20,000 nucleotides of DNA, taken from IMG/VR virus record IMGVR_UViG_3300017642_000077; one strand, written 5' to 3'. The notes beneath the pieces were generated by a model, which worked only from the letters and a program-made list of their open reading frames with translations, searched no databases and was not told the DNA's origin. Positions 1,840 to 18,226 of the stretch are shown here, in pieces (within the stretch, counting starts at the first letter, position 1; each line of letters opens with the position of its first letter). Source of the DNA: an uncultured virus (IMG/VR IMGVR_UViG_3300017642_000077). Its lineage: Duplodnaviria; Heunggongvirae; Uroviricota; Caudoviricetes. Position numbers and translations under genes: made by a program.

Positions 1840-2096
1840 CACGCGGCCTCGTCGGGGTGGGGCTGGGTGGGGTCGGAGGGGAATGCCGTGGATAGCGGGG
1901 ACGGGAGGGGGTGGAGCGGATGGGTTTCTCCGTAGAGGTAGGGCCAAAGCTTTTGGATATTGGCATAGCTTGGCTTGGCTCCCTCAACATTGAGAAGCCG
2001 CCAGATGGTGGATTGAGGAACCCCGCTTTTCCTGGCGATTTCCGACTCGGAAAGTCCTGAGTTTTTTTTCGCTTGGAGGTCTTTCAAAATGTCCAT
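1839..2096 (-). CDS. cro: Cro-like XRE HTH regulator
   Basis: 85 aa; HTH SESEIARKSGVPQSTIWRLL; divergent from the repressor and shares its recognition helix. Confidence 0.85.
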   Translation of the reverse strand: MDILKDLQAKKNSGLSESEIARKSGVPQSTIWRLLNVEGAKPSYANIQKLWPYLYGETHPLHPLPSPLSTAFPSDPTQPHPDEAA

Positions 2097-2102
2097 GACG
2101 GG

Positions 2103-2131
2103 ATACTACCCAAACTTAGATAGCGAGTCAA
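2103..2131 (-). promoter_or_regulatory. PR-like sigma70 promoter
   Basis: Minus strand TTGACT-N17-TAGTAT; the -10 ends 6 nt before the cro ATG. Confidence 0.7.
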
Positions 2132-2154
2132 TGATCAATCGCCAAACTTGGGTA
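2107..2154. promoter_or_regulatory. OR-like operators (two 16-bp sites)
   Basis: TACCCAAACTTAGATA (2107-2122) and TCGCCAAACTTGGGTA (2139-2154); pseudo-palindrome TAYCCAA-NN-TTGGRTA, repeated at 4520-4566. Confidence 0.75.
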
Positions 2155-2199
2155 AGACAAAGTCTTCGCGGTTGGGTATGGGAAGATTGGAGGCCTTCC

Positions 2200-2925
2200 A
2201 TGCCGTTCCTGGAAGATGTCAGGCAAAGTCTCGCTCGGTTTGAAAATAATCAGTCCGAGCTTTCCCGGTTGAGCGGGGTTCCCCAATCGACCATAAATCG
2301 AATTTTCAAAAGCCAGGGCGCACCGAGGGCCGACATTTTGGGGAAGCTTCTAGACGCCGTCGGCGCGCGAATCGTCTTCCCCGGCGAGCGCCAGGAACTA
2401 ACCCGGGACGTCTGCTGGGTGGATGCCAAGATCGTCCCGGCCGGGAATGGGCAGGCACTCCCGCCGTCCGAAAGCTATTTTGCCGTCCCGCTCGTGGGCG
2501 AGGCTGGGGCCGGGCCGGGCGTGATGCCGACTGAGGAAATCAAGTCGTGGGTGCTGGTCTACCGCCACCAGCACGCCATCCGCTTCAAGCGTGACCTGCT
2601 CGCCGTTGAAATCGAAAAGCATAGCACGTCCATGGTGCCGCTGCTGCGGCCTGGGGATATCGTGCTCGTGGATCGCACCGACTTCGAGCCGACCAAGCCG
2701 GGCGGCATCTTTCTGGTGCGCGAGCCGGGCCAGGAAGGCGGGGCCATGGTCAAGCGGGTGTCCGTGAAAGATGTTCCGGACGATATCCTTGTCACGTTCT
2801 ACAGCGAGAACGCGGCCGAGAATCCAGCGGACACATACAGCCTAAAGCGCGATTATGACAATGAAATTTCAAAGGCCATAGTCGGACGCTGCGTTTGGGC
2901 ATGGTCGGATATTACGGGGAAGTGA
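2200..2925 (+). CDS. cI: CI-like phage repressor (HTH + LexA/S24 autopeptidase)
   Basis: GGAGG RBS before ATG 2200; HTH QSELSRLSGVPQSTINRIF; Ala-Gly site GEAGAGPG; catalytic-type Ser (STSMVP) and Lys (MVKRV). Confidence 0.92.
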   Translation: MPFLEDVRQSLARFENNQSELSRLSGVPQSTINRIFKSQGAPRADILGKLLDAVGARIVFPGERQELTRDVCWVDAKIVPAGNGQALPPSESYFAVPLVGEAGAGPGVMPTEEIKSWVLVYRHQHAIRFKRDLLAVEIEKHSTSMVPLLRPGDIVLVDRTDFEPTKPGGIFLVREPGQEGGAMVKRVSVKDVPDDILVTFYSENAAENPADTYSLKRDYDNEISKAIVGRCVWAWSDITGK

Positions 2926-2975
2926 TAAACCGTGCGGTGGTGGACAAATCAACCTCGAGCCCTTAAAATTGAGGC

Positions 2976-3875
2976 ATGATCGAAATGAGCGACCTCCCCG
3001 AGGACAAACGGCCGGACTTTTGTCTGACCATAGAATTCGCCAGGGACACCAAAAATCCAGGGCGAATTTTTAAGTCCATGGCTTCGTTGATCGAAGCCAT
3101 GGAGGGGATTGATTCTATCCTTATTGAGTCTATTGATTCAAAAATAAAGCCAGTTCTTTTGCTTGACTCTGTCGAGTCAGGGTCTGTAAAGGTATGGCTA
3201 AAGCAATTTCTTGAATTTTTCCCTGATGACGGGCTGAATAAACTAGACTGGAAGCCGCTCGTCGGTCAATATTTGGTAAAGGCCAAGCATTTTTGGCTTA
3301 GCAAAATTGACACAAAGGAACCACTACCGACGCGAGAAAGCATTGATGCAATATCTACTGGCATAAATGAAATTGCCAGAGAGACAAACGTAAAGCTACT
3401 CCCAGTTTACAAAAAAATACCAGCGATTGAAATCGCCCGTGGCATTAAGATGTTGGCCGACGCTACTGCTAAACTTGACCAGGGCGATTCTGTAAAATTT
3501 TCATCAGACGATGGTGACGCGCTTGTGCCATCATCCATCATCATAGAACAATCAAAAATAAATGAGATACTGTCATTTGAAACCATACAAAATGAAGCCG
3601 TAAAAATATTAATGGTCAGGAGACCTGATTTTCTTGGGGATACGGCGTGGGAGTTTCGACATGAAGATAAAAAATACCCTGCCAAGATAGACGACAACGA
3701 ATGGCTTGAAGAGTTCAGGGACGGGAAGCATGACATCAGGCCCGGAGACGCGTTGAAGGTTAAGATACTTGAAACGACTTCCTACGATATGAACGGGGAA
3801 GTCGTGAGCGATACAAGGTCAATAATAAAGATACTTGGTGTTATACGGCAACGCCGGATGTCTCTTATAGAATAG
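2976..3875 (+). CDS. Hypothetical protein in the immunity region (AT-rich; C-terminal possibly OB-like domain)
   Basis: 299-aa ORF with GAGG RBS; visibly more AT-rich than cI; C-terminus W-x-F...AKIDDNEWL...PGDALKVK. Confidence 0.85.
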   Translation: MIEMSDLPEDKRPDFCLTIEFARDTKNPGRIFKSMASLIEAMEGIDSILIESIDSKIKPVLLLDSVESGSVKVWLKQFLEFFPDDGLNKLDWKPLVGQYLVKAKHFWLSKIDTKEPLPTRESIDAISTGINEIARETNVKLLPVYKKIPAIEIARGIKMLADATAKLDQGDSVKFSSDDGDALVPSSIIIEQSKINEILSFETIQNEAVKILMVRRPDFLGDTAWEFRHEDKKYPAKIDDNEWLEEFRDGKHDIRPGDALKVKILETTSYDMNGEVVSDTRSIIKILGVIRQRRMSLIE

Positions 3876-3968
3876 GGAATATGTCTGCACCCACTGGGTG
3901 TTTAAGTCCTTGTGGTTCGTCCGCAAGGCCGCCGCGCAACGAAGAATGCAATCCCACGCGGCGTCAGG

Positions 3969-3997
3969 AAGCCCCGCCGACGCGGGGCTTTTCTTTT
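3969..3997 (+). terminator. Intrinsic terminator
   Basis: AAGCCCCGC-CGAC-GCGGGGCTT followed by TTCTTTT. Confidence 0.75.
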
Positions 3998-4023
3998 CCC
4001 GACCCATCCGCTATCCAATCAGC

Positions 4024-4449
4024 ATGAAGCACCACATCTACCTCGCCGGCCCCCTCTTCACCCACGCGGAACGCCAGTTTATGGCCTCTCTCCGCGACCG
4101 CTTGCGCCAGCTCACCCATGTCACCGTGACCTGGCCGGGCGACCTCTTTGACGATGCCCACCTTGCCTCCCTTGGTCCCAAGGCCAAACAGCACATCTTC
4201 GCCGGTTGCCGTGACGAGATCCACGCCGCCACGCACATAGTGGCCATCCTGGACGGCCCCCAGGTGGACGACGGCACGGCCTGGGAGATCGGCTACGCCT
4301 ACGCCCGGGGCCTGCCGGTTATCGGCCTGCGAACGGACTTTCGGCAGGCAGGCGACACTGCCCATTCGGTAGCAAACGCCATGATCGAGTGCTCGTGCGT
4401 GCATATCTACCGATCCGCTGATGAGCTTCTGGCCGCCCTGGCCGGATAG
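4024..4449 (+). CDS. Nucleoside 2-deoxyribosyltransferase (NDT/Rcl-like N-glycosidase) family protein
   Basis: Motifs IYLAGPLF and DGPQVDDGTAWEIGYAYARGLPVIGLRTDFR; 141 aa. Confidence 0.88.
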   Translation: MKHHIYLAGPLFTHAERQFMASLRDRLRQLTHVTVTWPGDLFDDAHLASLGPKAKQHIFAGCRDEIHAATHIVAILDGPQVDDGTAWEIGYAYARGLPVIGLRTDFRQAGDTAHSVANAMIECSCVHIYRSADELLAALAG

Positions 4450-4473
4450 CCAACCCCCGCCATCTCTATTTCT

Positions 4474-4510
4474 ATCCCCGCCCGGCTTCGGCTTGGCGGG
4501 GATTTTTTTT
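4474..4510 (+). terminator. Intrinsic terminator
   Basis: ATCCCCGCC-CGGCTTCGGCTT-GGCGGGGAT stem ending in a T8 run. Confidence 0.8.
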
Positions 4511-4519
4511 GGGCTATCT

Positions 4520-4570
4520 TATTCAAGTTTGGAAATTGACCTTGCATTACTACCCAAACTTGGATAGATT
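4520..4570 (+). promoter_or_regulatory. PL-like promoter with OL-like operators
   Basis: TTGCAT (4542-4547)-N17-TAGATT (4565-4570); operators TATTCAAGTTTGGAAA (4520-4535) and TACCCAAACTTGGATA (4551-4566, 15/16 identical to the 2107 site). Confidence 0.78.
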
Positions 4571-4879
4571 CTCCTCAACGAGCAGCCACCCGCACCCCGC
4601 ACCGCTCCGGCCTAGGCCGAGGGGCAAGGGGACAGGTGGCGGGGCGAGAGGCCGGAACGCGACCGGAAATCCCTGCAACAGCAAGCGCCGCGAGGATGCA
4701 CGCCACGGGAGGGGATGGGAGCGGGACGGCCAGGAAGAGAGAAAAAGCCTTTTGATTGAAGAGAGTTGAGCGGCAGGAACAACGATCCATCAACCACATG
4801 CCCATCAAGCGGGCGGCCGGATCAAGGGGCATTAAGAGTGTCTCGGCCGGCAATAAAACGAAACCTTTTGGAGCATGAC

Positions 4880-5482
4880 ATGGAAATATTAAAACTTCAT
4901 TTTAAAAAGGACGCTAAAGGACGTTGGCTTGGATTGTTTAGATGTAAAAATTGTGGAGTAATTTATATTAGGGATTTAAGCGCTGGCAAAAAATCAAAAC
5001 AATGCAAAAAGTGCTATAAAAATGGAATAGCGAAATTAAATTACAAACTATATCACATTTGGCACTCTATGCGCGACAGGTGTTATAATAAAAATAATAA
5101 GAATGCTAAATATTACTACAAAAAAGGTATAAGACTATGCAAGGCGTGGAGAAAGTTTGAAAATTTTTTAGAGTGGGCAAATAAAAACGGTTGGAGACCA
5201 GGATTACAGGTTGACAGGATAGACAGCGAAAGGGGTTATTCCCCAGATAATTGTAGGCTGGTTACTAGTTTGATAAACATGCGAAATAGAAGTTGCTGTA
5301 AACTGTCTATTGAAAAGGCTGAAACAATCAGGCTCCTTCATGCTGAAGGAAAGACTTCTAAAGAAATTGCAAATGAATTTTGCATAAGCAGGGCGATGCT
5401 AAGTTATGTTTTGCATAATAGGTGTTGGTCGGTCGAGCCCCCTACGCAGCGAGCAACCAACTCAACCGTTGGAAACGGCTAG
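4880..5482 (+). CDS. Phage HNH-type (homing) endonuclease with N-terminal Cys motifs and C-terminal HTH
   Basis: LYHIWHSMRDRC...GIRLCKAW...FENF...QVDRIDSERGYSPDNCRLVT; CxxC...CxxC at the N-terminus; strongly AT-rich; GGAG RBS. Confidence 0.8.
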   Translation: MEILKLHFKKDAKGRWLGLFRCKNCGVIYIRDLSAGKKSKQCKKCYKNGIAKLNYKLYHIWHSMRDRCYNKNNKNAKYYYKKGIRLCKAWRKFENFLEWANKNGWRPGLQVDRIDSERGYSPDNCRLVTSLINMRNRSCCKLSIEKAETIRLLHAEGKTSKEIANEFCISRAMLSYVLHNRCWSVEPPTQRATNSTVGNG

Positions 5483-5586
5483 CCAGGGGCATGACAACAG
5501 AATTTCTCCCTGGGGGACTTCGGTCCCCCTCGGGACTGGCCTCGCGTGTTCGGCGTGGGGCCTGACCGAGAAATAAGGAGGGAGGG

Positions 5587-6639
5587 ATGGGAAAAGAAGA
5601 AGAAAACACTGTTGTTCGTGGGTTTAAGGGATTCTCCAAAGACTTTAAATGCCGAGACAAGCAATACGGAACGGACGAGACTTTCGAGGAAGAAGGCAAC
5701 ATCGAGCTTTGCAAGCATGGAATGCACTTTTGCGAATATCCGCTCGATGTTTTCGGATATTACGAACCAGGGTTAGGCAGCCGCTATTGCGAGGTGTCAA
5801 CTGACTGTGCTTCTCCGAAGGCGCAGGGGTCGGATTCAAAACGTGTGACCAGCCGGCTTTCGGTCGGTGTTGAGATCAGCATACCCGGGATCGTGCAGGC
5901 CGCCGTGAAGTATGTGTTGGAGCGCATCACATCCGAAAAAACAGAGTCCAACACGGGCGACCAGAGCGCGGCCACCAACACGGGCGACTACAGCGCGGCC
6001 ACCAACACGGGCAACCGGAGCGCGGCCACCAACACGGGCAACCGGAGCGTGGCCACCAACACGGGCGACTACAGCGCGGCCACCAACACGGGCGACTACA
6101 GCGCGGCCACCAACACGGGCGACTACAGCGCGGCCACCAACACGGGCGACTACAGCGCGGCCACCAACACGGGCAACCGGAGCGTGGCCACCAACACGGG
6201 CTACTACAGCGCGGCCACCAACACGGGCAACCGGAGCGTGGCCACCAACACGGGCGACTACAGCGCGGCCACCAACACGGGCGACTACAGCGCGGCCACC
6301 AACACGGGCTACCGGAGCGCGGCCACCAACACGGGCAACCGGAGCGCGGCCACCAACACGGGCGACCAGAGCGCGGCCACCAACACGGGCTACCGGAGCG
6401 CGGCCACCAACACGGGCTACCGGAGCGCGGCCAGTGTCGAGGGCGAGCAATCTGTAGCCATTTCCACAGGAGAAAATGGCCGAGTCAAAGGCGCTCTAGG
6501 CTGTGGGATTTGTTGCGTCGAGCGTGACGAGGACGACGGCCATATCGTCGCCATCAAAGCCGCCATCGTGGACGGCGAAATCGTCAAGGCCGACACATGG
6601 TATTCTGTTAAAAATGAAGAATTTGTCGAGGTTGAATAG
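5587..6639 (+). CDS. Phage repeat-containing protein (DUF7666-like N-terminal domain + 9-aa repeats)
   Basis: Strong RBS; GFKGFSKDFKCR...GMHFCEYPLDVFGYY N-terminus; 18 x NTGxxSAAT; C-terminus VDGEIVKADTWY. Confidence 0.85.
   Translation: MGKEEENTVVRGFKGFSKDFKCRDKQYGTDETFEEEGNIELCKHGMHFCEYPLDVFGYYEPGLGSRYCEVSTDCASPKAQGSDSKRVTSRLSVGVEISIPGIVQAAVKYVLERITSEKTESNTGDQSAATNTGDYSAATNTGNRSAATNTGNRSVATNTGDYSAATNTGDYSAATNTGDYSAATNTGDYSAATNTGNRSVATNTGYYSAATNTGNRSVATNTGDYSAATNTGDYSAATNTGYRSAATNTGNRSAATNTGDQSAATNTGYRSAATNTGYRSAASVEGEQSVAISTGENGRVKGALGCGICCVERDEDDGHIVAIKAAIVDGEIVKADTWYSVKNEEFVEVE
5950..6435 (+). repeat. Coding tandem repeat, 18 x 27 bp
   Basis: Unit AAC ACG GGC (G/A/T)AC (TAC/CGG/CAG) AGC G(C/T)G GCC ACC, counted directly. 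Confidence 0.97.
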
Positions 6640-6677
6640 CGAATTTCCGGCGGGGGATGCTGAGTCCCCCGCCACAA

Positions 6678-6807
6678 CTTGGGATTCGAGCGGGTGGCTG
6701 ACCATGACTCATATGGGGACATGTGGCACTGGGCCGCGAAATCCAGATTGCTGCAATGCAGCGTGGTCGCCCCGACTGCCCGGACAGCCACCCGTTTGAG
6801 GCTCAAG
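6678..6807 (+). ncRNA. Putative structured ncRNA (long closing helix, multibranch)
   Basis: TTCGAGCGGGTGGCTG (6685-6700) pairs with CAGCCACCCGTTTGAG (6785-6800) using G-U pairs; internal CTGG/CCAG and GCTGC/GCAGC stems. Confidence 0.45.
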
Positions 6808-6810
6808 CAT

Positions 6811-6893
6811 CCAGGGGACAAACAAGAGAGGAATCCAGGATGACCCTAGGCACTCTCCTGGAGGCGATGGTTAAAGTCCATCCCCCTGGTCCA
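6811..6893 (+). ncRNA. tRNA-like RNA (acceptor stem + T-arm + CCA, no D-stem)
   Basis: CCAGGGG/CCCCTGG 7 bp, discriminator T, CCA; T-arm GATGG-TTAAAGT-CCATC; central stem TCCAGGA/TCCTGGA. Confidence 0.6.
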
Positions 6894-6899
6894 AAATTT

Positions 6900-6977
6900 C
6901 GGGACGTAGCGCAGTCTGGTTAGCGCGCCTGCCTTGGGCGCAGGAGGCCGGGCGTTCAAATCGCCCCGTCCCGACCA
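6900..6977 (+). tRNA. trnP: tRNA-Pro (anticodon TGG)
   Basis: Acceptor CGGGACG/CGTCCCG, A73, CCA; D-arm GCGC/GCGC; anticodon arm CCTGC-CTTGGGC-GCAGG; T-arm GGGCG-TTCAAAT-CGCCC. Confidence 0.96.
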
Positions 6978-7057
6978 AATCTCCCTCTTGCGGTTTCCCC
7001 GACCGCCAACCCCAACCGGGCCGTCTCCGGTGAGACGGCCCAAACGCCAATCAACGC

Positions 7058-7198
7058 CCGCATGGTGCGCGGCGGAACAGGAGGTAGAGCACTGCTCACC
7101 CTGATAGAGGATTGGATTCCCGCAATCCATACATGGCCCGAGGATGGCGCAGCATCAAAGCGCATCCGGGGAGATGGTATCGAATACCACCCTGCGGA
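7058..7198 (+). ncRNA. Putative expanded tRNA-like / multibranch RNA
   Basis: Ends pair (CCGCATGGTG/CACCCTGCGG); T-arm-like TGGT-ATCGAAT-ACCA; D-loop-like GGTAGAGCA; three internal hairpins. Confidence 0.4.
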
Positions 7199-7248
7199 GT
7201 GACTGAGGCAGCAACACGAATAAACAACCAGAGATGTTAGGAGAAAGC

Positions 7249-7356
7249 ATGATCCGAGGACCGACCAGTCGCCGTACCGAAAAGAATATAGCCCTGGAGA
7301 GCATCAGCAAGATCATCATCGGCGCCCACGGCACCGCCCCCGGCAAGAACATCTAG
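7249..7356 (+). CDS. Micro-protein (35 aa)
   Basis: AGGAG RBS; MIRGPTSRRTEKNIALESISKIIIGAHGTAPGKNI; below the ORF-track length cutoff. Confidence 0.45.
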   Translation: MIRGPTSRRTEKNIALESISKIIIGAHGTAPGKNI

Positions 7357-7518
7357 ACCGGCGGCTTGGCCATCTGAAACGCCCCCCGCTACTTGGCTCA
7401 CGGGAGGCCTGAAACCACGCATGTAAAAACCAATAGGAGGCGCGAAGCAGATGACAAAAGAAAAGGGTTAGATATCCGGTGTGGCCCTGATGGTGCTGCA
7501 CTTTTACAGAGTGACCGT

Positions 7519-7564
7519 GCCCGGCCAAAATCTACACCAACAGGTGATTTGGCCGGGCTTTTTT
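7519..7564 (+). terminator. Intrinsic terminator
   Basis: GCCCGGCCAAA...TTTGGCCGGGC followed by T6. Confidence 0.7.
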
Positions 7565-7667
7565 AGAGATGGAGCAAAGAGGCGGTTTGCACCCGCGAGC
7601 GTGGCCGCCATGCGAGACCGTCAAGAGCGGCAGGGGAACCCCCGAAGGCAACCTTTGTTCCATCTCT
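7565..7667 (+). ncRNA. Putative structured ncRNA (15-bp closing helix, multibranch)
   Basis: AGAGATGGAGCAAAG pairs with CTTTGTTCCATCTCT (one G-U); internal GGCGGTT/GGCCGCC and further short stems. Confidence 0.45.
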
Positions 7668-7791
7668 CCCAGCCGGGACTTGGCGGTCCTGGACGGGGAA
7701 AGGCTTTGCTTCCAGAACCCATCCCGTGGCGGCCGTGGATAGGCCGCGGCTGCTTCGGGGGTGGGGTCAGACACACACCACGGAGGCCACC

Positions 7792-7884
7792 ATGGGCATT
7801 GCACGCAGACGGGCGCGACGTAGGGCCGGAAAACAGCAACGGAAACGTAAGCGGAGGATGCAACGCCATGTGCTATCCGTATGA
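7792..7884 (+). CDS. Arginine-rich micro-protein (30 aa), N-like ARM peptide
   Basis: GGAGG RBS; MGIARRRARRRAGKQQRKRKRRMQRHVLSV; overlaps the next gene. Confidence 0.55.
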   Translation: MGIARRRARRRAGKQQRKRKRRMQRHVLSV

Positions 7885-8038
7885 GCCTGACCATATCAAG
7901 CACGCGTTCTGGTCGCTGGCGCTGGTCGCCGTCGTTGTTGTTGCGGTCATTGTCATTACCGCATGGTCAAGACCGTCGCTCGAAGCGCAATATCAAGCCC
8001 GGTGTATCGCCGGGAACATATGCGAGGTGCCGAAATGA
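7868..8038 (+). CDS. Small single-pass membrane protein (56 aa)
   Basis: GGAGG RBS; hydrophobic stretch FWSLALVAVVVVAVIVITAW. Confidence 0.6.
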   Translation: MCYPYEPDHIKHAFWSLALVAVVVVAVIVITAWSRPSLEAQYQARCIAGNICEVPK

Positions 8039-8355
8039 ACATCCCAAGCTATGCGACGTGCTCCATGTGCACCGGATATGAGGACGATAAATTGCACCCG
8101 GACTGCGGGACTTGCGTCGAATACGACAAGCAAGTCTTGGGAGCTATTGAAGCGGCTTGTTTGCCCAAGCCCAAGTTTTTCCGTTTAAGCATCCCTTGGG
8201 ACGCTAAGCCACCCTGCGGATGCGATGGATGGCAGCCCAACGATGAGGAACGAAGGTTCCAAGAAGAGGCCTCGACTCTTGTGGAGGCCTTGCCCATGGA
8301 CGACTTTCAGGCTCGCAACATGGAGGCCGGGCGACGGCCGGGAGGTGGAATATGA
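8035..8355 (+). CDS. Cys-rich hypothetical protein
   Basis: ATGA coupling; CSMC, CGTC and CGC motifs. Confidence 0.65.
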   Translation: MNIPSYATCSMCTGYEDDKLHPDCGTCVEYDKQVLGAIEAACLPKPKFFRLSIPWDAKPPCGCDGWQPNDEERRFQEEASTLVEALPMDDFQARNMEAGRRPGGGI

Positions 8356-8549
8356 ACGCAACCCCCATCTATATCGCCCCCGAGCACGCCGCTGTCCGTG
8401 ACGCATGTATCGAGCGCGGGCAACTGCGGCCCCAGGATCGGGCGGACATCGAGCGCATTAAGGGCATGCCCATTGAGGAAGTCGGGACCATGCTCGTTGA
8501 ATCGGTCCTGGCCAGCTATCGGCATATGTTGGCCGTGCGGGGCTACTGA
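8352..8549 (+). CDS. Hypothetical protein (65 aa)
   Basis: GGAGGT RBS and ATGA coupling. Confidence 0.65.
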   Translation: MNATPIYIAPEHAAVRDACIERGQLRPQDRADIERIKGMPIEEVGTMLVESVLASYRHMLAVRGY

Positions 8550-8641
8550 TGGATACCCCCAAAAGCGAACCGCCCCGGTGCTGGAACACTGGGGCGGACG
8601 GGAAACAAAAAATCATCTCTCTGCGTTGAAGGAGAGAGCTT

Positions 8642-9484
8642 ATGAGTAATATCGAGGGGCGTCAACTCCCCACGCACGGCATCTACCCGAACATCTCCCA
8701 CGACGACTATCACGCCCACCCGGCGGTCTCGAAGTCCGGCCTGGATCGGCTGGAGCAAAGCCCGGCTCACTTCCGCGCCTATCTGGACGGCGAGGACAAG
8801 GACACCGACGCTAAGCGCATAGGCCGCCTGTGCCACATGGCCATCCTGGAACCGGCCCGATTTAAGACCGAGGCCGTGGTGCCCCCTGACATCAACCGCC
8901 GCACCAATGCCGGCAAGGCCGAGTGGGAGGAATGGCAGCGGTTGCATGTCGGTTGTGAGATCATCAAGGACCAAGCCGAGGCGGACCTGCTCCGGCGTAT
9001 TCAAGATTCCGTCCTCTCGCACAAAACGGCCGGGGCGTTCCTCTCCTACCAGGGCCAGGCCGAGGTCTCCGCATTCTGGACAGACCTGGAGAGCGGGGTT
9101 GCCTGCCGGTGTCGGCCGGACAAGGTGCTTGGGGGCGGCGTCATCATCGACCTCAAAAGCGCCCGAGACGCCAGCCCCAGGGGGTTCACCAAGGCCGTCG
9201 CCGACCATCGTTATCACGTCCAGCAGGCATTCTACCTGGATGGGTTCACAGCGGCCGGAGGCTACGCGGACACGTTTATTTTCGTGGCGTTTGAAAAAGA
9301 GCCGCCATTCGCCGTGTGCTGCCACCAGCTGCAACCGGAGGACGTGGAAGAGGGCCGGGCGGATTACAGACGCAATCTGGCCACCTTAGCCCGGTGCCGC
9401 GCCGAAAATAACTGGCCGTCCTACGCCGATGACATCGTACAAATTACCTTGCCCGCATGGGCGAGAAAGGAGTTTCGGATATGA
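8642..9484 (+). CDS. RecE/Exonuclease VIII-like PD-(D/E)XK nuclease
   Basis: GIYPNISHDDYHAHPAVSKSGLD...SPAHF; CRCRPDK...IIDLKS; YHVQQAFY; FIFVAFEKEPPF. Confidence 0.9.
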   Translation: MSNIEGRQLPTHGIYPNISHDDYHAHPAVSKSGLDRLEQSPAHFRAYLDGEDKDTDAKRIGRLCHMAILEPARFKTEAVVPPDINRRTNAGKAEWEEWQRLHVGCEIIKDQAEADLLRRIQDSVLSHKTAGAFLSYQGQAEVSAFWTDLESGVACRCRPDKVLGGGVIIDLKSARDASPRGFTKAVADHRYHVQQAFYLDGFTAAGGYADTFIFVAFEKEPPFAVCCHQLQPEDVEEGRADYRRNLATLARCRAENNWPSYADDIVQITLPAWARKEFRI

Positions 9485-10656
9485 GCGAAAGCTTGCCTGA
9501 TTTAAAGAAGGAATCGGCTGCGGCCTCTCCTGATGTGGTCCTCGGATTCGGAAACGCCGCCGGATTCGCCATGCTGCAACGGGCAGCCGGCCTATTGGCC
9601 AACTCCACGCTGGTCCCGGAAGCCTATCGGAAGTGGATCAAGGACAAGGACAACAAATACGGTCCTCTGGTCGAGAACGAAGCGGCCATTTCCAACTGTG
9701 TCATCGCCCTCAATATGGCCCAGCGTTTGGAAGCCGATCCAATCATGATCATGCAAAATCTGTATGTGGTCGAAGGCCGGCCTTCCTGGTCCTCGCAATT
9801 CATCATCGCCGCCCTGAACACTACGGGCCGTTTTTCTCCCTTGCGGTTTCAAATCAGCGAACCCGTGAAGAAGACGGTCCAGGTCACGACGGTGGATTGG
9901 GTCAACAAACAGAAGCAGGTGAAGAAGGAAAACATCGAAATCCAGGACCGGACCTGCATCGCATGGGCCGTTGAGAAGGAGACCGGAGAACGACTGGAGA
10001 GCCCGCCTATCTCCATCGAAATGGCCGCCAAGGAAGGATGGCTTACCAAGAAGGGGTCGAAGTGGCAGACCATGCCGGACCTCATGCTCCGCTACCGCGC
10101 CGCCACCCTGTTCGGACGACTCTATGCGCCTGAAAAACTGATGGGCCTGCAAACCGAGGACGAAAGTCGGGACATTTACGACCTTGAGCCGGCCAATGGT
10201 GGTTTTTCACTTCCCGAGACTACCCCAGCCGACCATACCGCCGACATCCTGAAGCGGGCTTCCCAGGGCCAGGAAGAGCCCTCCCAGTCGGTTGAACCCT
10301 CCACCAACGGTATCCGCAACAAGCCCACCAAGGCCGAGATGGAACAACGCCGCGAGGAGGCCAAGACCGCAATCCTGTCCGCCGGCCTGGACCTGGAAGG
10401 CGTCGAAAAGTCCCTCAACTCCTACGCTCAAAACTGGAACACCGCGCAGTGCCAGCGGGCCATGAAGATGGCTGAAGAGGCCCAGGAAGCCGCGAACGAG
10501 AACCCTGACGATGACCAGTCGGACGATGCCGCCCAAGCCGAAACTTCGGAAGAGCCTTTCGAATGCCCCAACAACAAAGGGCCGGTCCGCCTCTCCGTCG
10601 AGTGCGCCGCCTGCGACCAGATGGGCAAGTGTCCAATGACGGATGGGCAGGCCTAG
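9481..10656 (+). CDS. recT: RecT/Bet-like ssDNA annealing protein
   Basis: Coupled to the exonuclease; IALNMAQRL..PIMIMQNLYVVEGRPSWSSQFIIA and SKWQTMPDLMLRYRA motifs; acidic C-terminal tail ending in a Cys4 cluster. Confidence 0.75.
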   Translation: MSESLPDLKKESAAASPDVVLGFGNAAGFAMLQRAAGLLANSTLVPEAYRKWIKDKDNKYGPLVENEAAISNCVIALNMAQRLEADPIMIMQNLYVVEGRPSWSSQFIIAALNTTGRFSPLRFQISEPVKKTVQVTTVDWVNKQKQVKKENIEIQDRTCIAWAVEKETGERLESPPISIEMAAKEGWLTKKGSKWQTMPDLMLRYRAATLFGRLYAPEKLMGLQTEDESRDIYDLEPANGGFSLPETTPADHTADILKRASQGQEEPSQSVEPSTNGIRNKPTKAEMEQRREEAKTAILSAGLDLEGVEKSLNSYAQNWNTAQCQRAMKMAEEAQEAANENPDDDQSDDAAQAETSEEPFECPNNKGPVRLSVECAACDQMGKCPMTDGQA

Positions 10657-10658
10657 CT

Positions 10659-11234
10659 ATGCCCACTATCCACTATCCACCCCACGTCTGTGAACGCGAG
10701 GGATGCACGAACATGACCAGAAACAAGCGGTTCTGCTCGCACAAATGTAGTCTTATCACCTCAAAGGAGCAAGGCGAGGCGGGCAGGAAAGCAAAATTGC
10801 ATCCGTGCATGATCTGCGGTGAACCGACAAAAAGAAAGATATGCGGCAAGAAAAGCTGTAGGGCGGAATTCTTTCGGAGGAGCGCGCTACACAGGGGGCC
10901 GCAGGGTACTCGGCGGTGTATCGCATGTGGACAGGAAAAGTCACTTAATGAGTTCCGCCGCCTCTCCGATGCAAGAAACTGCTACTTTTCGAGCACCTGC
11001 CACGCTTGCCGACCTGAAAACGCTTACGTCCTTGGCCAGACCGAAGTCCCGAGAGTACAGCCGAAACCCAAGCCGGTCCCGGTTCAAGCGGCCTGGAAGG
11101 ACCCTGACCCGGGACGTCCTGTGTTACCCATCGCCGTTGACGAGCATGGGCGTCGGTCCGCCATTCCCTGGTCATCCCTGAATCTGGGAGGGCTGCCCGG
11201 GACATCAACAAGCGCAACGCCGTTCGCGGCGTGA
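10659..11234 (+). CDS. Multi zinc-finger hypothetical protein
   Basis: Multiple Cys clusters (CEREGC, FCSHKC, CMIC, ICGKKSC, CIAC, CHAC). Confidence 0.65.
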   Translation: MPTIHYPPHVCEREGCTNMTRNKRFCSHKCSLITSKEQGEAGRKAKLHPCMICGEPTKRKICGKKSCRAEFFRRSALHRGPQGTRRCIACGQEKSLNEFRRLSDARNCYFSSTCHACRPENAYVLGQTEVPRVQPKPKPVPVQAAWKDPDPGRPVLPIAVDEHGRRSAIPWSSLNLGGLPGTSTSATPFAA

Positions 11235-11241
11235 GGGAGGC

Positions 11242-11436
11242 GTGATGGCCAGCAAACGTCACCTCCGCCGTAAGGCCTGTGTAGGCAAAATCCGCCACGA
11301 GATCCTGGAGCAGGCTCGGGCCATGGCCTGGAACGGGACGAGCCCGTATCACTGTCCGTTCTGTGGCGGTTATCATGTCGGGCATTGCCCAGGATATAAG
11401 GATCGGTTCAAGAAGCCAAATGGGAGAAGGTACTGA
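11242..11436 (+). CDS. Small basic phage protein with CPFCGGYHVGH motif
   Basis: GGAGG RBS; coupled to the next gene. Confidence 0.7.
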   Translation: MMASKRHLRRKACVGKIRHEILEQARAMAWNGTSPYHCPFCGGYHVGHCPGYKDRFKKPNGRRY

Positions 11437-11699
11437 TGCTCGAATGGACTGAAGAATATGACCGCTACGACAACACCCACTACGAGGCGGCCGGACCGTA
11501 CCAGGAAGAGGACGGAACGACGTTTTATTATCGTATCGTCCCGGTTCTGCGGGATAACAAGGTCCAGTTCTCGACCTGCGAATCGGACGCAGAACTGATT
11601 TCGGCTGCTGACGCCGAGGAATTCCCGACAGTGGAGGCGGCCAAGGAGGACTGCCAGCAGCGGGACGACAACCTGCGCGATGAATTGGCCGGGTTGTGA
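11436..11699 (+). CDS. Acidic hypothetical protein
   Basis: TGATG coupling; 87 aa. Confidence 0.7.
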   Translation: MLEWTEEYDRYDNTHYEAAGPYQEEDGTTFYYRIVPVLRDNKVQFSTCESDAELISAADAEEFPTVEAAKEDCQQRDDNLRDELAGL

Positions 11700-11890
11700 A
11701 TTATCAACAAACCGTCCTCCCCATATTCCCCGCGCCAGGATCACTCGTTCGGGTGCCGTCTCCCGGTGGGGGATATGTTCGGACCTGGACCATGACCGAG
11801 GCGCGGGATTTGGGGCAGGGGCTACGGATAAAATGTGTGGGTGAGGGTGAAGTAGAGGCAGGGAGGGTGAAAGAAATTGCCAGACGTTGA
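11696..11890 (+). CDS. Hypothetical protein
   Basis: GTGA coupling; 64 aa. Confidence 0.5.
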   Translation: MNYQQTVLPIFPAPGSLVRVPSPGGGYVRTWTMTEARDLGQGLRIKCVGEGEVEAGRVKEIARR

Positions 11891-12074
11891 TATCATTATT
11901 GAGCCAGAACGTGGGCGTTGCATCGTTAGCAACGTCAGGATGATTTCCAAAAAGCAGGTGGAAAAAGCGCCAAACTGGCACGTTGTAGCGCTGGTTTTCG
12001 GTGTCGGAAGCGGCAGAGCAAACGCCCTGTGCCGGGAATGGTGGATCGATCCAAACACAACAGAGACCCGCTAG
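11877..12074 (+). CDS. Hypothetical protein
   Basis: GGAGG RBS upstream of a TTG start; PNWHVVALVFGVGSGRANALCREW motif. Confidence 0.55.
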   Translation: MPDVDIIIEPERGRCIVSNVRMISKKQVEKAPNWHVVALVFGVGSGRANALCREWWIDPNTTETR

Positions 12075-17857: not shown

Positions 17858-18226
17858 ATGTCGGATGAAGTGAAGCTGGAGCCTTGCCCGTTTTGTGGAT
17901 CGAAAGCGATACTCCGTGATTTTACTGATTTCGTGACTGTTTCCTGTCGAAAATGTGCAATGTCTGGACCATGCGACCCAACAAAACAAGGCGCCATCTC
18001 CGCCTGGAACGCATTACCCAGGGACCAGAAGTGGACCACCTACGACGGGAAGGAAGAGACGTTGCCGCCGTCCAATTCCGAAATTCTATTCTGCTTTGCT
18101 CGTGGTCCGGTGAAAAAGAAGTCTTACGCGAAGACCTATGAGGACAGGGAAGTCATCGTCCTGTCTATGTGGGACACAACCATAAAGACCGGAGATCGCT
18201 GGCTGCTCTGGCCGGAGGATAAATAA
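17858..18226 (+). CDS. Lar (restriction alleviation) family-like zinc protein with C-terminal extension
   Basis: KLEPCPFCGSKA...VSCRKC...AISAWN signature. Confidence 0.75.
   Translation: MSDEVKLEPCPFCGSKAILRDFTDFVTVSCRKCAMSGPCDPTKQGAISAWNALPRDQKWTTYDGKEETLPPSNSEILFCFARGPVKKKSYAKTYEDREVIVLSMWDTTIKTGDRWLLWPEDK

Follow-up and report, generated by a model that had tools for sequence, protein, structure and literature searches.

What is encoded in a 1.15-kb stretch of phage DNA that holds a tRNA gene and several strong hairpins in an otherwise densely coupled operon? Such an island lies at positions 6640-7790 of a 20,000-nt piece of DNA from an uncultured virus of the Caudoviricetes (IMG/VR record IMGVR_UViG_3300017642_000077); the whole piece is called the window below. 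The initial annotation, made from the letters alone, saw here back-to-back folded units without a convincing long open reading frame (ORF), arranged around a phage tRNA-Pro, and suggested that they may form an undescribed polycistronic cassette of phage small RNAs. Our analysis leads elsewhere. On balance, the island is probably a mosaic spacer in the early-left operon of a prophage, arranged around a variable tRNA slot, and not a small-RNA cassette. Its content would be one working tRNA-Pro(UGG), a tRNA-shaped remnant, hairpins on either side of the slot (H1 with the long-stem unit S before it, H2 with H3 after it), short ORFs, a terminator and a second long-stem unit (Table 1). The ORFs would comprise one of about 36-46 codons, whose small peptide has a DUF4116-like repeat, and two shorter ones of 35 and 6 codons.

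A tRNA slot of variable content

Relatives of the island were sought by pattern scans of viral, metagenome and genome collections, by protein-anchored searches and by BLAST of 239 genomes belonging to the order of the nearest host-like genome. Apart from duplicates, four variants were found in total: the window, the provirus record G001 and two further forms of the island, L085 and L086. Distinct sequences of H2, H3 and the small ORF are provided by three of the four. G001 is 99.98% identical to the window from position 6891 to the window end. The two also have positions 6640-6686 in common, with the homology beginning exactly at 6640, and differ in between; given the identity from 6891 onward, this difference is a clean module swap. 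Contigs of four other sequencing runs indicate further variants (in X9, X13 and X17), seen as lists of differences. In a contig of X13 a DUF7666-like gene is joined to tRNA-Pro via 40 other letters, without H1, S and the remnant.

The tRNA-Pro reported in the initial annotation is called by both ARAGORN and Rfam, scoring 67.1 bits against a gathering threshold of 29 for RF00005, and is present in all four variants. It is the one gene that these two programs returned from the island and the only unit there that belongs to the tRNA family; a scan of 6500-7900 against Rfam at E <= 10 yielded nothing credible besides it. The gene shares 80% identity with tRNA-Pro from a Geobacteraceae genome. Its anticodon loop (6931-6937) has C at position 38, versus A in two Geobacter-type genomic tRNA-Pro genes. 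The tRNA-Pro of L085 differs from the same two genes at loop positions 32 and 38, and the acceptor and T-arm also differ between the phage and the Geobacter-type genes.

The other content of the slot changes from variant to variant (Table 1). G001 and L085 carry tRNA-Thr, -Ser and -Ala where the window has the unit 6811-6893, which is absent from the three other variants. The corresponding unit of L086 resembles a type-II tRNA, with an acceptor and T-arm close to those of the L085 tRNA-Ser; it scores 38.3 bits with RF00005, has 12 extra letters in the anticodon loop and is not called by ARAGORN. The window unit was described as tRNA-like in the initial annotation. It has an acceptor stem, a T-arm and an encoded CCA, lacks a D-arm and has a 15-nt 'anticodon' loop. 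It does not match RF00005 at E <= 10 and is not called by ARAGORN at default settings, with introns or in the mitochondrial mode; only with the -ps80 option is 6823-6893 reported, as 'tRNA-???' with a 2-letter anticodon. The fold z-score of the unit is only -1.9, no better than that of shuffled sequences. As it sits where relatives carry ordinary tRNA genes, the simplest reading is that the slot for tRNA genes undergoes exchange and decay of its content, and that 6811-6893 is a remnant. A Y RNA-like element was also considered: the window has no match to RF02553 (YrlA, cut-off 69 bits), and the relatives score 18.8 and 22.6 bits with matches that overlap true tRNAs.

The arrays of G001 and L085 (Thr, Ser, Ala, Pro) serve each of the four NCN codon boxes with one tRNA, and every anticodon has U34-G35. 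One report names the tRNAs for Ala, Ser, Pro and Thr as those carrying mcmo5U34 in Gram-negative bacteria (PMC5909439). Such an array could point to a specific attack on host tRNAs or to a specific decoding need.

Upstream of the slot, H1 follows directly after the stop codon of the preceding gene and forms the left edge of the module common to the relatives. Its stem is kept in all four variants, with loops that vary in sequence and length. S, in turn, adjoins the first tRNA or tRNA-like gene, and in G001 and L085 its 3' end runs two letters into tRNA-Thr. The same short motifs open and close S in all four variants. The upper stems have unrelated sequences, and a long helix of 20-24 bp is nevertheless kept in each of them: the closing helix has 21 pairs in the window, 22 in L085, 24 in L086 and a core of about 20 in G001 (31 if counted to the tip). 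The enclosed interior measures 84, 52, 139 and 7 nt, and the fold z-score equals -4.5, -3.0, -7.0 and -2.8, respectively. There are 3-6 G.U pairs in each helix; in all four variants the fold of the + strand is more stable than that of the - strand by 7-17 kcal/mol, and a window-type S from two other runs has T>C at 6797, which turns a G.U pair into G-C. No second copy of S was found in the 239 genomes. Taken together, the helix kept with unrelated sequences, the G.U pairs, the strand preference and the lack of a second copy suggest that a long stem is needed at the RNA level, on the transcribed strand, and speak against a repeated DNA element.

Downstream of tRNA-Pro, two pairs of H2 are changed on both sides in L085 and still paired (G-C to C-G and U-A to C-G), and a third is broken. 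H3 has three one-sided changes among the three distinct sequences, all of them still paired through G.U, so that its pairing holds only for the RNA of the + strand. These counts are small, yet consistent. Judging by these comparisons, at least three elements, S, H2 and H3, behave as RNA structures on the + strand across the relatives. The hairpins H1, H2 and H3 do not resemble a lambda-type nut site, whose conserved boxB has a GNRA-like pentaloop: the loops of H1 vary in the four variants, and those of H2 and H3 are not GNRA-like. The close spacing noted in the initial annotation was confirmed, with gaps of 4, 2 and 6 nt between H1, S, the unit 6811-6893 and tRNA-Pro.

This arrangement suggests how the hairpins might act in cleavage and stabilisation. 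An early transcript would run through the island, and RNase P together with 3'-end nucleases would cut out the tRNA or tRNAs. Since S ends 0-2 nt before the first tRNA, the upstream mRNA would, after a cut by RNase P, carry H1 and a 20-24 bp helix as its last elements. At this 3' end H1 and S could shield the message from 3' exonucleases or provide an RNase III site. Processing sites of RNase III have about 20 bp or more of double-stranded stem; S has 21 pairs in the window and 20-24 in the relatives. H2 and H3 would likewise protect the 5' end of the downstream message, and the terminator would limit read-through into the recombination genes.

Short reading frames, terminator and background folding

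The unit 7058-7198, an 'expanded tRNA-like' element in the initial annotation, is most likely a small protein-coding ORF. It gives no RF00005 match at E <= 10 and no call in any of four ARAGORN modes, and its fold z-score is -1.3. Of the + frames, that of the ORF alone is open throughout the three distinct variants. L086 carries a 1-nt insertion after the AGGAGG and before the possible CTG start; beyond it the three sequences are colinear, with no indels. In the ORF frame, L085 and L086 differ by 4 synonymous and 3 non-synonymous codons (other + frames: 0/6 and 1/5). The insertion of L085 described below contains an ORF whose last 19 codons differ from the tail of the L086 ORF by 5 synonymous and 6 non-synonymous changes (other frames: 1/10 and 0/9). 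Pooling gives 9/18 synonymous codon differences for the ORF frame and 2/32 for the two remaining + frames (Fisher p = 7e-4). Variants that are otherwise 84-86% alike show little or no variation in the blocks 7058-7091 and 7155-7198. An expanded tRNA was rejected on the grounds of this coding signature and the lack of a match to any tRNA model; the case illustrates a pitfall, the mistaking of a short ORF that ends in a T-arm-like hairpin for an 'expanded tRNA'.

Searched against 1.84 billion representatives, the L086 ORF matched one protein (P0002, E 2.2e-10), a 1193-aa NACHT-type protein with 13 DUF4116 stretches. BLASTP of this ORF against single repeats of P0002 gave 37-40% identity over 35 aa with a pairwise E of 1e-5. 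The window's own form has diverged in the part best matching the DUF4116 repeats. In our reading the relatives have a small gene here, of which the window carries a divergent or decaying allele. Directly behind the small ORF L085 has a 279-base insertion (1183-1462) carrying an 84-codon ORF, for which no relative beyond itself and no family were found. At its end the insertion repeats, in diverged form, the final ~40 bases of the small ORF, as if recombination had placed it at that sequence.

Further short ORFs were considered. The 35-codon ORF has its first nine codons kept in L085 and L086, and the remainder diverges; with 0 synonymous and 4 non-synonymous codon differences between the window and L085, its coding is unproven. 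The arginine-rich ORF at 7792-7884 is identical to that of L085 in the first 19 codons and then diverges, and run X13 has, at a loose end, a third form of the tail. A 56-codon ORF that encodes a hydrophobic segment (7868-8038) begins within the arginine-rich ORF, and neither has a family match in Pfam or PHROG. In total, 11 ORFs between 6417 and 8038 were tested, with no Pfam match at E <= 0.1 and only two chance-level PHROG rows (E 0.075 and 0.0074). Hence the absence of a convincing long ORF stands as far as protein families go, with the reservation that short ORFs are present and one of them (7062/7092-7202) has coding-type substitutions.

The terminator at 7519-7564 is identical in G001 and L085. 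It has the predicted G+C-rich hairpin and U-run of an intrinsic terminator, as the initial annotation proposed, and is absent from a consensus terminator scan, which missed it because the stem is interrupted. At the same position L086 (its 3262-3327) has a hairpin of the DUF3800-VIII RNA family (RF03075, 55.4 bits versus a gathering threshold of 40.2), located just before a CI-repressor-like helix-turn-helix (HTH) gene. The window terminator did not match RF03075 at E <= 10, and a literature search on DUF3800-VIII returned nothing. The second long-stem unit folds 6 kcal/mol better on the + strand than on the - strand. It is a discrete module: the homology with L085 stops at 7674, just beyond the helix, and in run X13 a 93%-like copy of 7565-7760 starts exactly at 7565, behind unrelated sequence. 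The segment 7668-7790 is replaced by 437 unrelated bases in L085 and partly kept in an X13 contig, with three small indels.

Fold z-scores of the units were calculated with 200 dinucleotide shuffles per segment on the boundaries set in the initial annotation. Six of the eight segments reached -3.2 or lower (Table 1), values helped by boundaries that were picked to fit. In a control with sliding 120-nt windows over 2041-12000 the mean z-score was -0.84 in the island (n=19) and -0.54 in the flanks (n=145; Mann-Whitney p = 0.19), and therefore the tiling as a whole is no more than what G+C-rich DNA gives. Coding DNA at 2990-3130 folds even better (z -5.5). Thus, the individual hairpins are real, and being tiled by folded units does not in itself exceed the background.

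Table 1. Features of the island, slot content of its variants and recognisable genes of the window. Fold z-scores refer to the segments given in parentheses, where these differ from the feature.
Feature	Position	Strand	Fold z	Remarks
CI-type repressor	2089-2925	+		HTH_3 and Peptidase_S24
Nucleoside deoxyribosyltransferase-like gene	3898-4449	+		
HNH endonuclease	4766-5482	+		
DUF7666 protein	5587-6639	+		
H1	6649-6673	+	-4.0 (6640-6677)	G+C-rich 10-bp hairpin, no U-tract; -22.8 kcal/mol
Long-stem unit S	6678-6808	+	-4.5 (6678-6810)	stem base conserved, upper stem and interior variable
Putative tRNA-shaped remnant	6811-6893	+	-1.9 (6811-6896)	7-bp acceptor stem from C1-G72, T-arm, encoded CCA
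tRNA-Pro(UGG)	6900-6977	+		CCA encoded; ARAGORN; RF00005 67.1 bits, E 6e-13
Slot, window	6811-6977	+		unit 6811-6893, then Pro
Slot, G001	L002 1633-1964			tRNA-Thr(UGU), -Ser(UGA), -Ala(UGC), -Pro(UGG)
Slot, L085	633-959			tRNA-Thr, -Ser, -Pro, -Ala
Slot, L086	2621-2720 (tRNA-like unit)			type-II tRNA-like unit, then Pro
H2	6990-7006	+	-3.3 (6978-7057, with H3)	5-6 bp trailer hairpin, C-rich 5-7 nt loop; fold, variant comparison
H3	7018-7041	+	-3.3 (6978-7057, with H2)	10-bp hairpin, tetraloop, no U-tract; fold, variant comparison
Small ORF	7062-7202	+	-1.3 (7058-7200)	ATG 7062 in frame, AGGAGG 7079-7084, possible CTG start 7092, TGA 7200-7202
35-codon ORF	7249-7356	+		behind Shine-Dalgarno-like GGAG; read from sequence
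6-codon mini-ORF	7451-7471	+		10 nt behind AGGAGG (7435-7440), just upstream of terminator; same in L085
Predicted intrinsic terminator	7519-7564	+	-4.8 (7515-7566)	interrupted 40-nt hairpin, then six U; -25.9 kcal/mol
Second long-stem unit	7565-7667	+	-4.8	15-bp closing helix, branched interior; -49.6 kcal/mol
G+C-rich hairpins	7668-7790	+	-3.2	5' leader of small arginine-rich ORF
30-codon ORF	7792-7884	+		very arginine/lysine-rich, behind GGAGG
RecE-like PDDEXK protein	8642-9484	+		
RecT	9457-10656	+		
Lar	17858-18226	+		
Tyrosine integrase	from 18819	+		

Competing explanations

The searches for more relatives added little to the four variants. Exact-pattern scans of viral contigs returned the same two or three contigs or nothing, and a 22-mer had no match in genome contigs. 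A 20-mer matched eight loci in metagenome contigs, five of which were known variants; L094, L095 and L098 were rejected as chance 20-mer matches inside coding DNA. Among 80 loci with DUF7666 relatives none had homology to the island, and eight loci with RecE-like relatives had neither a tRNA nor the island. Relatives of RecT were found in genomes at nine loci, where the best-matching contig, from a Geobacteraceae metagenome-assembled genome (MAG), starts too near the gene to show the island. BLAST of 6640-6899 and 6978-7800 against the 239 genomes gave only short chance-level matches, in 1 and 33 genomes, with best E-values of 6e-4 and 4e-4, respectively. GenBank phages matched only the tRNA and part of RecT. 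Two runs labelled RNA-Seq (X16, X17) were considered as expression evidence and rejected: their contigs are marked 'probably DNA', and the high depth over 6856-6969 comes from tRNA-Pro of other organisms. Among the titles listed from a literature search on tRNA arrays and tRNA-like genes of temperate phages and prophages, none is about such an island.

Several observations weigh against a mosaic spacer with maintained RNA stems and a small gene. With four variants related by descent, and three distinct ones for H2, H3 and the ORF, the covariation counts are tiny and no statistical covariation is possible. The RNAalifold covariation term for 6975-7215 is only -0.32 kcal/mol. In the sliding-window control the island is no more structured than its flanks. 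S is not a plain hairpin and encloses a branched interior of 7 to 139 nt. The window's small ORF shows no purifying signal (synonymous/non-synonymous differences 1/11 versus L085 and 2/11 versus L086) and lacks a canonical start behind a Shine-Dalgarno sequence, the E-value of 2.2e-10 is the sum of seven weak repeat matches, and the Pfam DUF4116 model (PF13475) matches none of the four ORF forms at E <= 10. The original proposal, a polycistronic cassette of undescribed small RNAs released like tRNAs and acting as decoys for RNA-targeting defence or as regulators, gains from the 2-6 nt spacing of the units and from the coincidence of the borders of S and 7565-7667 with mosaic breakpoints. The S helix is kept while its interior is swapped, both 6811-6893 and the L086 unit retain the acceptor stem, T-arm and CCA with an abnormal anticodon region, and none of the proposed units is in Rfam. 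We nevertheless consider it unlikely, given that 7058-7198 has a coding signature, 6811-6893 folds poorly (z -1.9) and is missing from three of the four variants, 7668-7790 is replaced in L085, the X13 variant does without H1, S and the remnant, and the island is not globally more structured than the coding flanks. In place of about nine discrete RNAs we found a probable remnant, ORFs and a replaceable segment. What can be retained is a mostly non-coding stretch, probably transcribed with the phage tRNA, and three + strand structures (S, H2 and H3) that are indeed without an Rfam family; neither of the two 'tRNA-like' units is a tRNA by the models.

The long inverted repeats that bound both S and 7565-7667 would also fit miniature inverted-repeat insertions or recombination scars that merely resemble RNA stems. 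Both units sit exactly at mosaic breakpoints, and the interior of S differs wholesale, as if other cargo had been inserted at one site. Such DNA-level elements are improbable here: neither 6640-6899 nor 6978-7800 has a second copy in the 239 genomes (a single match, of 28 nt, does not form a hairpin), 3-6 G.U pairs are part of every S helix, S is 7-17 kcal/mol less stable on the opposite strand, and there is no transposase nearby. It is also doubtful that everything besides the tRNA and the terminator is decaying filler left by module exchange and folding because of its G+C richness. The sliding-window control without excess structure, the better folding of coding DNA at 2990-3130 and the high variability of content among the four variants are what filler would give. 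Against it stand the S helices maintained with different sequences in all four variants, two compensatory changes in H2 and three G.U-compatible changes in H3, the synonymous-substitution signature of 7092-7202 among the relatives and the nearly invariant blocks at 7058-7091 and 7155-7198. Speculatively, and with low probability, the slot beside the tRNA genes might be a swap site for scaffolded RNAs, in which S, as a conserved stem base, would carry a hypervariable structured cargo of 7-139 nt that RNase P releases at the neighbouring tRNA. The units with an abnormal anticodon region (6811-6893 and the L086 form with the 12-letter insert) would be non-decoding tRNA mimics, and both kinds would serve the phage as decoys or sponges against host tRNA- or RNA-targeting defence; this would place the S cargo and the tRNA mimics beside an array that covers exactly four NCN codon boxes in the sister phages. 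The mosaic spacer around a variable tRNA slot remains the explanation we favour.

Genomic setting and comparison with known systems

The window represents the early-left operon of a prophage of lambdoid type, with a repressor, an early promoter, RecE/RecT, Lar and an integrase (Table 1). This layout follows from the gene set, every recognisable member of which is on the + strand, and from a terminator followed by a promoter-like sequence, TTGCAT-17-TAGATT, read at 4480-4565. The closest RecT among sequenced genomes, with 79% identity, belongs to the Geobacteraceae MAG, and for this reason the host is probably a member of the Geobacteraceae family.

Directly 3' of the early promoter about 165 nt (4565-4730), C-rich and then G-rich, are ~89% conserved in G001 and L093, where the promoter and operator regions differ. 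This segment may be a leader or antitermination RNA; as to the latter, none of its 46 predicted pairs has a compensatory change in three variants. By comparison with G001, the early leader has received the HNH endonuclease gene (4731-5436) and the DUF7666 gene (5491-6639) in two separate insertions; at these points G001 has 94 and 12 bases, and it carries low-G+C genes upstream of its promoter instead. Two very stable hairpins (z -5.5 to -6), one with a perfect 12-bp stem, are located at 3031-3103 inside an ORF (2976-3875) just downstream of the repressor gene.

If the island is such a spacer, it is a neat case of a pattern whose outline is known. It would mean that temperate phages carry exchangeable tRNA modules in their early operons, and that bracketing hairpins let the excision of tRNAs spare the flanking messages. 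Two features may merit attention: S, in which about two helical turns are kept while the contents are replaced wholesale, and the Thr, Ser, Ala and Pro array of the sister phages.

Phages are known to carry tRNA gene clusters, such as that of T4, where two further stable RNAs (species 1 and 2) accompany the tRNAs. As in T4-type clusters, tRNA genes lie here a few nucleotides apart, with CCA encoded, and would be co-transcribed with a structured non-tRNA RNA; as in phage clusters generally, the content varies between related phages. Unlike T4, the cluster belongs to the early-left operon of a temperate prophage, and the window retains one tRNA. S, at most a candidate stable RNA, has no sequence or Rfam relation to anything. 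Phage tRNAs have been proposed to counter host tRNA-cleaving defences (van den Berg et al. 2023, PMC10264068), and a further report is titled 'Evasion of antiviral bacterial immunity by phage tRNAs' (PMC11555353). The present phage likewise has its own tRNA, and its tRNA-Pro differs from host-like genes at position 38, but here codon compensation is equally possible.

The early operons of phages also contain RNase III processing hairpins, among them the T7 intergenic sites, the lambda N leader and sib. Like these, S is an interrupted stem of about two helical turns (21-24 bp) between early cistrons; unlike them, it encloses a branched interior of very variable length. The window terminator has the same place and general shape as the L086 hairpin of RF03075, while it lacks a match to that family. 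A further system for comparison is antitermination by lambda N and nut. The arginine-rich 30-codon ORF resembles N in that hairpins and a terminator precede it within the early-left operon. It differs from N in the much smaller size of its peptide, in its place beyond the terminator and in having no family match, and the conserved hairpin H1 differs from nut in that its loops are not conserved.

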